Assembly: GCF_051903065.1 (NCBI RefSeq)
Contig: NZ_CP178438.1
Reading direction: 5' to 3' (one strand)
Source: Escherichia coli
GTDB lineage: Bacteria; Pseudomonadota; Gammaproteobacteria; Enterobacterales; Enterobacteriaceae
DNA: 64,000 bases
The notes beneath the pieces are model-generated. The model did not search any database, was not told where the DNA came from, and was given only the letters and a program-made list of their open reading frames with translations. This document shows positions 17,891-21,719 of the stretch, piece by piece. The position numbers and the translations under genes are program-made. The number at the start of each line of letters is the position of its first letter. Positions within the stretch are counted from its first letter, which is position 1.

Positions 17891-18784
17891 ATGAATGGAA
17901 AATTGCAAAGTTCAGATGTAAAAAACGAAACTCCGTACAATATTCCCTTATTGATTAACGAAAATGTGATCTCCAGCGGAATTTCTCTGATCTCGCTCTG
18001 GCATACCTACGCCGACGAGCATTACCGGGTGATCTGGCCGCGGGACAAGAAGAAACCGCTTATCGCCAACTCATGGGTTGCGGTGTATACCGTACAAGGA
18101 TGTGGGAAAATTCTTTTAAAGAATGGCGAACAAATAACACTGCATGGCAACTGTATTATATTTTTAAAGCCAATGGATATTCACTCTTATCACTGTGAAG
18201 GTTTAGTCTGGGAACAGTACTGGATGGAATTTACCCCCACCAGTATGATGGATATTCCCGTTGGTCAGCAAAGCGTTATTTATAATGGCGAAATTTATAA
18301 TCAGGAACTCACCGAAGTTGCTGAGTTAATAACTTCACCAGAAGCAATAAAAAATAATCTGGCAGTCGCTTTTCTGACGAAAATTATTTATCAGTGGATT
18401 TGTCTTATGTACGCAGACGGTAAAAAAGATCCACAACGGCGGCAAATTGAAAAATTAATTGCCACTTTACATGCCAGTCTGCAACAACGCTGGAGCGTAG
18501 CCGATATGGCTGCCACGATCCCCTGTAGCGAAGCCTGGTTGCGTCGTCTGTTTTTACGCTATACCGGAAAGACGCCGAAAGAATATTACCTCGATGCGCG
18601 TCTGGATCTGGCGCTATCGCTATTAAAGCAACAAGGAAACTCGGTTGGCGAAGTCGCTGATACGCTCAACTTCTTCGACTCCTTTCATTTCAGCAAAGCC
18701 TTTAAACATAAATTTGGTTATGCGCCTTCAGCCGTGCTAAAGAATACGGACCAGCACCCAACGGATGCCAGTCCACACAATTAA
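17891..18784 (+). CDS. yidL: AraC-family transcriptional regulator
   Basis: C-terminal AraC HTH; start at ATG 17891 preceded by GGAGGG. Confidence 0.85.
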
Positions 18785-20103
18785 CGTAACTCTGGCCAGT
18801 ACGCTTTGTTGGCCTCCAGCAACTCATCCAGAATAGCTTTGGCGACCGAGGCGCTCGGTACCGTTTTCGACAACGTAATCGCCTGCCACAGGTGCTGATA
18901 TGAACGCTGTTCCCAGGCGTCCACGACCAGTTTTTCCACCGCCACTTGCTGACTCATTAACCCTTTCTGAAACTGCGGGATATCGCCGACCACCAGTGGT
19001 TCTGGTCCGTTGTGCCCGACCAGACACGGGATCTCGACCATCGCTTCATCATCAAAGTTATGGATTGCCCCGTTGTTAGGCACAATCAGCAACATCCGCT
19101 CCTGAGTGTTGAAGGCAATTGCCGCCGCCAGATCGACGATGTATGACGCATGTTCGTCAATCTCCAGCTTGCCCGCCGCTGAATTTCCTGCCGCTGTAAT
19201 AGCGCGGCAAGCATCGAAAACCTGTTTCTCGCGATGTTCCATCACCTCATTCGCGCGGGTATGTTCAGGGTTGGAATGCTGAACAACATAATCCGGGAAG
19301 AGATAATATTTCAGATAGGTGTTTGGTAATGTATCCGGGTCCAGTGCCTGGACATCCCGCGCTTTTGCATAGGTGTCGTTCCAGCTCGCTTCAGTATGCG
19401 TATCTTGCTGCGGTGGAACATAACCGTGCTTCGAGACATATTGCCGCAGCTGGGGCATCAGGTCGTTGCCCTGCAAATCTTCAATTGATGTCCACCAGCC
19501 AAAGTGGTTCAGGCCGTAGTAGCGCACGCGCATCTGTTTGCGATCTTGCAGCCCAACAATTTGCGCCATCCGGCTTTCAATACCGATTGGCATGTCACAG
19601 ATGTTGAGGATTTTCGCATTCGGGCGCAGACGACGCGTGGCTTCTGCAACAATTGCTGCCGGGTTGGAGTAGTTGAGCATCCAGGCATTTGGTGAATATT
19701 TTTCCATATAATCCACCAGTTCCAGGACGCCGCCAATGGAACGCATGCCGTACGCTATTCCGCCGGGTCCGCAAGTTTCCTGACCAACAACGCCGTGGCG
19801 CAGCGGGATTTTTTCATCCAGTTCGCGCATCGGGTATTTGCCGACGCGGATGTGCGCCATGACAAAATCAACGTCGCTAAATGCCACTTCAGGATCGGTG
19901 GTGTAACTAAACGCAATATCCGGCGCTTTTTCTTTAAGAATGACTTTACAGGCTTCGGCAATCACTTCCTGCCGCGCACCATCGTTATCATAAAATTTCA
20001 GTGCACGAAGCGGGAAACGGTCCTGATTCGCCAGGAGCATCAACACGATGCCTGGCGTAAAGGTGCTTCCACCGCCTGCGACAACCACTGAGAATTTGGT
20101 CAT
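18781..20103 (-). CDS. glvG: 6-phospho-alpha-glucosidase (GH4, NAD/Mn-dependent), intact
   Basis: 440-aa ORF with N-terminal Rossmann GGGS motif; uninterrupted reading frame. Confidence 0.85.
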
Positions 20104-21719
20104 TATACTGCCTCCGTAATGGCAACATTTTCTGCTGATTGATGAGAATTAATTAAGCTATCGAGCTGTTCACGCAGCTGGGATACATGCAGACCAATGA
20201 TCACCTGAATGGCATCGCCACTACGGAAGACGCCGTGCGCTCCCAGCTTTTTAAAGACTTCGTCATCCAGCGTTTGTGACATGTCATGCAGTGCAATACG
20301 TAGACGCGTCGCGCAATTGTTAATGCTGGAGATATTGCCGACCCCGCCCAGGGCTTGCAGGATACCGGCAGCCTGATCCAGCTCTTTTTTTGGCTCTGCA
20401 GCGATGGTTTGGCCTCGCGAGGCTTTGTATTCGGCTTTTGAGTAGAGTTTCACTTCCGCATCTTCACGTCCCGGCGTACACATGTTGAACTGCAGTATCA
20501 GGGTGCGGAAAACCACGAAGTACAGCAGGGTAAAGCACAACCCAATGGCGATTTGGGTCAGCATCATATCCGCGTGGTTGCTAAACATCGGGATCCAGTT
20601 TTGCGGTAAAACCTGGTCAATCAGACCTCCGCCCATGTTGCCCACCACACCAAAGAGATACATCACGGTCGACATTGAGGCCGCCAGCACGGCGTGTACC
20701 GCAAACAGCAACGGTGAAATGAACAGGAAGGTAAATTCCAGCGGTTCGGTAATTCCCACCAGCATGGCGGTTAAGGTTGCGGGGATCAGCAAGCCCGCCA
20801 CTTTTACCCGATTTTCCGGTGCGGCAGTGAAGTACATCGCTAAAGAAATGCCCACGGCACCAAAGATTTTTGAGTTACCGTGCAGGGCAAAACCGCCTTC
20901 CGGGAACAATGATTTCAGCGGCTCGGCGCTCAAACTGAACTCTTGCAGATGCTGCGCCCAGTACATCTGAATGCCGCCTTCAACAGCTGCCGGACCAAAG
21001 ATAAACGGTCCGTAGATGAAGTGGTGTAAACCGGTTGGGATCAGAATACGTTCGAGGAAGGTGTAAACCCACACCCCAAGCGCACCCGCCGAACGCAGGA
21101 ACGCTTGCAGAGATTCAATCCCCATTTGTACTTTTGGCCAGCCGAGCAATGTCAGCCAGGCACAGGGGATCATCACCAGGAAGGCGATAATCACCACATA
21201 AGACGTCCCCTGGAAAATGCCGAGAAACACCGGCAGTTTTTTATCGAACAGACGGTTATGCAGCGCCGTCACAATGCCGGAAATGATAATTGCGCCGATA
21301 ATGCTGGTATCGAGGGTTTTAATCCCGGCCATCATTGTCAGACCGCTACCTGCCACCGCGTCCTGAGTGAAATCGACGCCGAAGTAACTTCCCCAGGTCA
21401 TTCCCATCGCATTGATGAAATAGTTCCAGGTCAGGAAACTCACCATCACCGCCAGACAAGCACGCCCCTGCGCTTGCTTAGCAAGGCCAATGGGTAAACC
21501 GACAGCAAAAATCAGCGGCATATTACGGAATACCGTCCAACCGCCCTCTTCAATAATGTGTACGATTTGCGCGAATAAACTGTTCGGATCGGTCAGTGAT
21601 TCCCCGACAAACATCGGGTTTTGCAACAAGATGGCAAGACCCACCACAATCCCGGCGAAGGGAAACAGCAGCACTGGCGTGAACATCGCGCCGCCAAAGC
21701 GTTGAATTTGACTGAGCAT
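20103..21719 (-). CDS. glvC: PTS alpha-glucoside-specific EIICB component, intact fused form
   Basis: ORF 20103-21980; start taken at internal ATG 21717-21719 (MLSQIQ..) giving 538 aa; EIIC membrane domain plus C-terminal EIIB. Confidence 0.8.

Follow-up and report, generated by a model that had tools for sequence, protein, structure and literature searches.

The window analysed here, a 64,000-nucleotide stretch of Escherichia coli DNA (contig NZ_CP178438.1), carries a glv locus with two uninterrupted genes in tandem on the minus strand and a regulator gene on either side. Its features, in window coordinates, are as follows.

17891..18784, plus strand: yidL, gene for an AraC-family regulator, convergent with glvG with a 4-nt 3' overlap (ORF, family models and RefSeq)
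18781..20103, minus strand: glvG, 440-codon gene for a putative GH4 6-phospho-alpha-glucosidase of the NAD+/Mn2+ type (intact ORF and homology)
18995..19002, minus strand: GAACCACT direct repeat, downstream copy bounding the K-12 deletion (alignment)
19003..19510, minus strand: segment of glvG (508 bp, residues 198-367) deleted in K-12 (alignment)
19503..19510, minus strand: GAACCACT direct repeat, upstream copy bounding the K-12 deletion (alignment)
20103..21719, minus strand: glvCB, 538-codon gene for a PTS EIICB, K-12 glvC and glvB as one frame (intact ORF and TIGR02005)
20111..20115, minus strand: GGAGG, Shine-Dalgarno sequence of glvG within the 3' end of the EIICB gene (sequence)
20613..20615, minus strand: EIICB codon 369, CAG (Gln) here and TAG (amber) in K-12 (alignment column 1436)
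21727..21731, minus strand: GAGGA, Shine-Dalgarno sequence 7 nt 5' of the EIICB ATG (sequence)
21829..21848, minus strand: conserved block CATGAAAGCGATCACGAATC 5' of the EIICB gene (near-invariant across three genera)
21865..21898, no strand assigned: 34-bp palindrome AGAGGTCTAC...GTAGATCTCT between yidP and glvCB, candidate YidP operator (palindrome scan)
22005..22023, no strand assigned: motif pair GTAGATCA-N4-TAGATCT adjoining the yidP start, second candidate operator (motif search)
22015..22731, plus strand: yidP, intact gene for a GntR/HutC-family regulator, divergent from the operon (family models, RefSeq and synteny)

The preliminary description had reported glvG as a clean 440-codon ORF and glvC-glvB as a single 538-codon EIICB ORF, and our ORF check agrees on both: neither gene has an internal stop, the translation of glvG begins MTKFSV, and the stop of glvCB overlaps the start of glvG (TAATG). 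The complete ORF at glvCB runs over 20103..21980 on the minus strand and would encode 625 aa, whereas translation from the internal Met at 21719 yields a protein of exactly 538 aa. We take 21719 as the correct start, since the TIGR02005 alignment begins at residue 2 when the protein is taken as 538 aa, RefSeq uses the same start in a 100%-identical strain, and the GAGGA sequence is suitably placed upstream. The block GAGGAT..AAATGCTCAGTCAAAT at this start is kept across genera in our alignment; model, RefSeq, Shine-Dalgarno sequence and cross-genus conservation all speak against the ATG at 21980 as the start. Against TIGR02005, the model for “alpha-glucoside-specific PTS transporter subunit IIBC,” EIICB scores 957.6 bits (cut-off 607.3; E = 1.2e-288), with residues 2-523 aligned to positions 1-524 of the 524 in the model. 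The protein has GITEP, a IIC motif, at residue 322, and the cysteine of CATRLR at 469; the cysteine of C-[AI]-TRLR is the phosphorylation site of IIB. PTS_EIIC (PF02378) and PTS_EIIB (PF00367) are its only domains, and no IIA-containing model in our search aligned past the IIB domain. Since EIICB has no IIA domain, IIA would have to be supplied in trans. The Enterobacter, Mangrovibacter and Phytobacter orthologs, which are 80-86% identical to it, carry the name alpha-glucoside-specific IIBC. We consider the placement of EIICB in the alpha-glucoside subfamily of the glucose-family PTS to be well supported by these comparisons.

GlvG residues 1-439 align end to end and without gaps with PDB entries 6dux/6dvv, which we take to be K. 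pneumoniae AglB (E = 1.3e-275), and residues 3-439 align, again ungapped, with 1u8x, the maltose-6'-phosphate glucosidase GlvA of B. subtilis (E = 6.5e-225). Given this match to a solved enzyme and that of EIICB to TIGR02005, glvG and glvCB are not chance ORFs. The dinucleotide (NAD+) binding motif GGGS at residues 10-13 is the same in 6dux and 1u8x. In GlvA, Cys171, Asp172, His202 and Tyr265 are Mn2+ ligands and catalytic residues, and C169, D170, H200 and Y263 of GlvG align with C171, D172, H202 and Y265. The assignment of GlvG as a GH4 6-phospho-alpha-glucosidase of the GlvA/AglB type thus appears well supported. The Shine-Dalgarno sequence of glvG falls within the EIICB gene, close to its 3' end, which suggests that the two genes are translationally coupled. 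Our terminator scan found no intrinsic terminator 3' of glvG.

YidP is 76% identical to its positional counterpart in Enterobacter, and its syntenic orthologs have an N-terminal GntR wHTH and a C-terminal UTRA domain. Its best model matches are of the GntR/HutC type and all lie below the equivalog cut-offs, which places it at family level only. YidP is probably a repressor of the glv operon. The 34-bp palindrome, made of 17-nt arms that are 88% complementary with no gap between them, keeps its GTCTA...GTAGACCT half-sites in two other genera, and TTTGTAGATCA and TAGAYCTC are kept in all three genera aligned. Three of the 10 TAGAYCT sites in the whole window fall between yidP and glvCB. We infer from this that 21865..21898 and 22005..22023 are candidate sites for YidP. 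The CATGAAAGCGATCACGAATC block could, speculatively, be a promoter or a CRP-type element. A candidate CRP site at 21898-21913 (2 mismatches) was dropped, because CRP-like matches occur in the window at chance level (22 found against 25 expected). The regulatory region of E. coli glv has a 72-nt insertion relative to the other genera.

The K-12 locus (glvC/glvB/glvG'; b3683, b3682, b4556) is the same one, with yidL, yidP, yidE and ibpAB likewise as neighbours and about 99% nucleotide identity to the window outside the lesions. Disruption of glvG and glvC in K-12 had been mentioned in the preliminary description, and the MG1655 annotation bears this out: glvG is listed there as a pseudogene of 815 bp, while glvC and glvB are two distinct CDSs of 368 aa and 161 aa. 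Aligning the window with the K-12 glv region, the check proposed there, located two lesions that K-12 carries and the window does not, so that the K-12 frames are not equally intact. One is a frameshifting 508-bp deletion in glvG, which removes H200 and Y263 and in simulation leaves a truncated product of 212 aa. The intact allele has two copies of GAACCACT and K-12 has one; the loss of glvG in K-12 is a repeat-mediated deletion. The other is the change of EIICB codon 369 from CAG to TAG: a C-to-T substitution at window position 20615 is the sole nucleotide change behind this amber codon, which splits glvC from glvB. As the amber stands in place of a Gln codon, a glnV (supE) suppressor should give back the native residue.

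Of the 5426 complete E. coli genomes in our census, 4281 have the glv locus and 1145 do not. The undeleted glvG segment occurs in 1652 (about 30%), and the exact K-12 deletion junction in 2612, about half. At codon 369, a 31-mer probe with CAG matches 3330 genomes and one with TAG matches 348; a further 603 locus-bearing genomes match neither probe, presumably owing to nearby SNPs, and are unclassified at this codon. All 30 amber genomes that we sampled look K-12-lineage, and on this basis the amber split of the transporter is a feature of the K-12 lineage alone, added on top of the deletion. The intact form is also found in O157:H7, in the strain LAM_HS and in the genome examined of C41(DE3), which we take to be a derivative of BL21(DE3); in C41(DE3), yidP is frameshifted. 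The exact GlvG and EIICB protein sequences of the window are each found on about 1000 public contigs, and RefSeq already gives the product of the window glvG the name 6-phospho-alpha-glucosidase. The intact locus is therefore not special to the window strain, but an ordinary and already annotated strain difference.

Based on these findings, we propose that the window carries the ancestral, undisrupted E. coli form of glv, a two-gene operon glvCB-glvG for an alpha-glucoside PTS EIICB and a GH4 hydrolase, whose expression would be regulated by YidP. This agrees with the suggestion in the preliminary description that the strain may take up and hydrolyse alpha-glucosides by this route if the operon is expressed. 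The gene order ibpAB-yidE-GntR-EIICB-GH4 is common to the window, Enterobacter and another species (L009). Taken as a whole, we give this reading a probability of roughly 85%. An alpha-glucoside, which may be methyl-alpha-glucoside, an isomaltose- or maltose-type disaccharide or a sucrose isomer, would enter through IIC, and Cys469 of IIB would phosphorylate its glucosyl unit at O-6. The phosphate would reach Cys469 from PEP through EI, HPr and a IIA acting in trans, most likely IIA-Glc (Crr). GlvG would then split the 6-phospho-alpha-glucoside into glucose-6-phosphate and the aglycone by the NAD+/Mn2+-dependent redox-elimination of GH4 enzymes, and YidP, binding the conserved GTCTAC/GTAGAC palindromes, would probably act as repressor of the operon. 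Our literature searches on glvG/glvC/yidP turned up no experiment that tests the operon of E. coli in its intact form.

It is a real possibility, at somewhat less than even odds, that the operon is intact but silent, cryptic in the manner of E. coli bgl, asc and chb, and gives no phenotype unless it is activated or derepressed, for example by loss of yidP. Our scan of 17700-22800 found fewer sigma-70 sites than in shuffled sequences and no consensus sigma-70 promoter between yidP and glvCB; a strong constitutive promoter, however, is not expected of an inducible operon. The intact, repressor-like yidP adjoins the operon, and the repeated losses within the species, by deletion in 2612 genomes and by absence of the locus in 1145, point to selection that is weak or intermittent. 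To our knowledge, E. coli is classically negative for alpha-methyl-D-glucoside fermentation in standard identification tables; if this holds, the operon, though intact, may be silent or narrower in its substrates. On the other hand, comparisons of intact alleles within E. coli and with Enterobacter give both genes a dN/dS of 0.014-0.079. Both are under strong purifying selection, which speaks for use frequent enough to preserve them, and the regulatory motifs and ribosome-binding sites are kept across genera. Silence would be a matter of expression and leaves the structural conclusion untouched.

Beyond the ancestral operon itself, the polymorphism may reflect more than neutral decay, although we think this unlikely: the transporter could have a role independent of GlvG, for example in signalling or in taking up some other sugar, or loss of the hydrolase could be advantageous in some niches. 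With the CAG 31-mer in 3330 genomes versus the undeleted glvG segment in 1652, an EIICB intact at codon 369 without glvG appears to be common. O111:H8 strain 8E and FDN-9, the two deletion strains outside K-12 that we looked at, have a full-length EIICB gene that shows no excess of amino-acid changes.

We regard it as very improbable that the open frames mask inactive proteins, through missense changes or recent regulatory decay, and are intact in appearance only. ORFs alone are no proof of activity, and elsewhere in the species decay of the locus is plain. Nevertheless, GGGS, C169/D170, H200, Y263, GITEP and the CATRLR cysteine are all present, the window alleles differ from those of C41 and O157:H7 by 1-3 nonsynonymous and 12-20 synonymous changes, and GlvG and the Enterobacter ortholog align at 89% identity with zero gaps. 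Least probable of all, and in our view barely tenable, is that arbutin and other beta-glucosides are the substrates of glv, which is what the older K-12 names (“arbutin-specific/arbutin-like IIC,” “6-phospho-beta-glucosidase”) imply: the legacy label “PTS system arbutin-like IIC component” is still in use, PMC2617782 has the name “Arbutin specific PTS permease,” and GH4 includes 6-phospho-beta-glucosidases, which match GlvG at E = 1e-61, but among solved structures 6-phospho-alpha-glucosidases match it best, with a lead of more than 200 orders of magnitude, and EIICB passes the alpha model and falls far short of the cut-offs of the beta-glucoside and arbutin models (44.8 bits against 614.7, and 42.8 bits against 722).

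An alpha-glucoside operon of the kind that we propose has a close counterpart in K. pneumoniae, where AglA (EIICB) and AglB (phospho-alpha-glucosidase) form a two-gene EIICB and GH4 unit as in E. coli glvCB-glvG; our synteny comparison was made with Enterobacter. In B. subtilis, GlvA shares its enzyme family and mechanism with E. coli GlvG, and the EIICB GlvC/MalP likewise has no IIA, whereas the gene order is glvA-glvR-glvC with an RpiR-type activator, unlike the EIICB-glvG order and the divergent GntR/HutC gene of E. coli. As stated in passages of PMC5309279, which cite Thompson et al. 2001 and Pikis et al. 2006 for the work on AglA/AglB, aglA/aglB enable K-12 to grow on alpha-methylglucoside, isomaltose and the five sucrose isomers, and B. 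subtilis glvA/glvC in E. coli K-12 lead to the use of isomaltose, panose and other alpha-glucosides.

K-12 is thus a poor reference for the glv locus, whose exact lesions in that strain and their population frequencies are now explicit. The intact locus as such matters little beyond correct strain-level annotation. Strains that carry it, such as C41(DE3) and O157:H7, are suited to asking whether E. coli natively uses isomaltose, isomaltulose and related sugars, a question of relevance to starch-hydrolysate fermentation and to the gut ecology of isomaltulose-type sweeteners. Of additional note, yidL, at the other end of the operon, is adjacent to it in the L009 species but not in Enterobacter.

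The window carries an intact glv operon. The ORF listing gave a 440-aa frame without interruption at 18781..20103 (-), which is glvG, and a second frame running from 21980 to 20103 (-), in which an internal Met at 21719 yields an EIICB protein of exactly 538 aa; translation showed each frame closing with a single stop codon and containing none within it. The coordinates and lengths in the preliminary description (18781-21719; 440 and 538 codons) were exact. We place the EIICB start at 21719 because the TIGR02005 family model aligns from residue 2 of the 538-aa form, RefSeq annotates the same start in a strain with 100% identity across this stretch, a Shine-Dalgarno GAGGA lies 7 nt upstream, and the GAGGAT..AAATGCTCAGTCAAAT block at this start is kept across genera in the alignment. 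The EIICB stop overlaps the glvG start (TAATG), with GGAGG 8 nt upstream, which suggests translational coupling. The exact window proteins were found on at least 1000 public contigs for one and on 988 for the other, and the intact operon is an ordinary feature that is already annotated.

The same description gave K-12 glvG and glvC as annotated disrupted or cryptic, and the K-12 record and our alignment to it bear this out. In the MG1655 annotation, glvG is an 815-bp pseudogene, and glvB (161 aa) and glvC (368 aa) are separate genes within the same 1617-nt span. The EIICB gene has no indels between the window and K-12; its split comes from one C->T change at window 20615, which makes codon 369, CAG (Gln) in the window, a TAG stop. 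K-12 glvG has a clean 508-bp gap corresponding to window 19003-19510. In the intact allele GAACCACT occurs at each edge of this segment and K-12 retains one copy, the pattern left when short direct repeats mediate a deletion. The deletion takes out GlvG residues 198-367, including H200 and Y263; 508 is not divisible by three, and simulating the deletion on the window sequence gave a truncated 212-aa product.

We counted these alleles in 5426 complete E. coli genomes, using a specific 31-mer for the deletion junction and centred CAG and TAG 31-mers for codon 369.

Allele counts at the glv locus in complete E. coli genomes
Locus present: 4281/5426
Locus absent: 1145/5426
Undeleted 508-bp glvG segment present: 1652/5426
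K-12-type deletion junction (specific 31-mer): 2612/5426
Codon-369 CAG (centred 31-mer): 3330/5426
Codon-369 TAG amber (centred 31-mer): 348/5426

The undeleted and deletion classes together cover 4264 of the 4281 locus-bearing genomes; the CAG and TAG classes leave outside them 603 locus-bearing genomes matched by neither codon-369 probe. All 30 sampled TAG-probe genomes were K-12-lineage in appearance (MG1655 derivatives, DH10B, MC4100, C600, BW2952, an O16:H48 isolate and similar). Since codon-369 CAG occurs in 3330 genomes and undeleted glvG in 1652, the most frequent form of the locus in E. coli appears to be one in which the transporter is kept and the hydrolase lost. In both non-K-12 deletion strains examined, O111:H8 strain 8E and FDN-9, the EIICB gene is full length (1617 nt), and its product differs from that of the window at few residues. 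In O157:H7, glvG, the EIICB gene and yidP are all intact. The window's own glvG allele is uncommon, with at least 99% identity over the 508-bp segment in only 36 of the 1652 genomes. One locus-negative genome that we examined lacks glvG, glvCB and part of yidP; in Touchon et al., glvC stands in a presence/absence gene table from a comparison involving the phylogroup of E2348/69 (PMC2617782).

The order ibpA-ibpB-yidE-GntR-EIICB-GH4 is found again in Enterobacter and in another species, there followed by yidL and yidK as in E. coli. From this recurrence we conclude that the unit is old and inherited in place, and that its intact form is ancestral. Compared with the Enterobacter proteins, GlvG shows 89% identity without gaps and YidP 76%. 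In comparisons within E. coli and against Enterobacter, Nei-Gojobori dN/dS was 0.014-0.038 in glvG and 0.018-0.079 in the EIICB gene, the latter range leaving out an out-of-register comparison with the other species (locus L009).

GlvG aligns end to end with the solved 6-phospho-alpha-glucosidases 6dux/6dvv (E = 1.3e-275) and B. subtilis GlvA (1u8x, E = 6.5e-225), and matches GH4 6-phospho-beta-glucosidases at only about 1e-61. It has the NAD-binding GGGS motif and all the residues aligned to GlvA C171, D172, H202 and Y265, which are Mn2+ ligands and catalytic residues in GlvA. RefSeq names the intact enzyme 6-phospho-alpha-glucosidase. Against TIGR02005, "alpha-glucoside-specific PTS transporter subunit IIBC" (cut-off 607.3), EIICB reaches 957.6 bits; for the glucose, maltose, NAG, trehalose, sucrose and beta-glucoside models it stays far under the respective cut-offs. 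Both the GITEP motif and the CATRLR cysteine of IIB are present; since its Pfam domains are EIIC and EIIB only, IIA must act in trans. Orthologs from Enterobacter, Mangrovibacter, Phytobacter and others, at 80-86% identity, carry the name alpha-glucoside-specific IIBC, which is the better description. The TIGR02005 description is applied to Enterobacter and not to E. coli: RefSeq/PGAP labels the full-length 538-aa protein (window 20103-21719; 4404-6020 in the identical RefSeq locus) "PTS sugar transporter subunit IIB". This label is likely caused by the equivalog model NF007255, whose 161 positions match EIICB residues 378-538 and which appears to have been built from the GlvB fragment that the amber codon creates in K-12.

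The reading of the intact operon as an alpha-glucoside route is supported; if expressed, it may serve uptake and cleavage of alpha-glucosides, the individual sugars being predicted. It is the E. coli counterpart of K. pneumoniae AglA/AglB and of B. subtilis GlvC/GlvA. K-12 given aglA/aglB could use alpha-methylglucoside, isomaltose and sucrose isomers, and glvA/glvC in K-12 added panose and others (PMC5309279). Our literature search found no paper testing the intact E. coli operon.

In the 295-bp yidP-glvCB region, a promoter scan found no consensus sigma-70 promoter, and the CRP-like match is at chance level. The region contains the following features.

21829-21848, 20-nt block kept in two other genera
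21865-21898, 34-bp palindrome
22005-22023, motif pair

Of ten TAGAYCT sites in the window, three lie inside this region, and the candidate-operator half-sites are kept in two other genera in the alignment. Because GTCTA/TAGAC-type half-sites resemble HutC-subfamily repressor operators, YidP is likely to be a repressor of glvCB-glvG. A 72-nt insertion at about 21926-21997, shared by the two E. coli sequences (the window and K-12), has no counterpart in the two other genera aligned. In C41(DE3), a BL21(DE3) derivative, yidP (NZ_CP010585.1; 6513-7150 of locus L003) is annotated as frameshifted beside an intact glvG and EIICB gene; if YidP is a repressor, expression of the operon might be constitutive in this widely used laboratory strain. 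At the other end, the 3' end of glvG shares 4 nt (18781-18784) with that of the convergent AraC-family gene yidL, and a scan found no terminator-like structure between them; yidL is reportedly, in one paper, a target of the BglJ-RcsB activator. Elsewhere, the perfect CRP consensus core TGTGATTCGATTCACA at 44166-44181 is the only zero-mismatch match within the window.

Window 1-37094, yicN to dnaA, is collinear with E. coli ECNB21-M121 (NZ_CP083585.1), a meat isolate from Zhejiang, China; the two align as a single block of 37,094 columns with 99.987% identity. K-12 has the D-galactonate operon dgoRKADT between cbrA and yidX; ECNB21-M121 lacks it, having only a short partial CDS there, and given the one-block alignment the window therefore also lacks dgo, at about 28558-28804. 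In strain 1332KP (NZ_CM173849.1), where yidI-yidL are absent at the locus, the gene adjoining EIICB (WP_000160102.1, 1320 nt; 3530-4849 of locus L005) bears the annotation "RNA-guided endonuclease TnpB family protein"; over its 3' half it matches glvG at 97.7%, so that it looks like a glvG that has been misnamed or rearranged.
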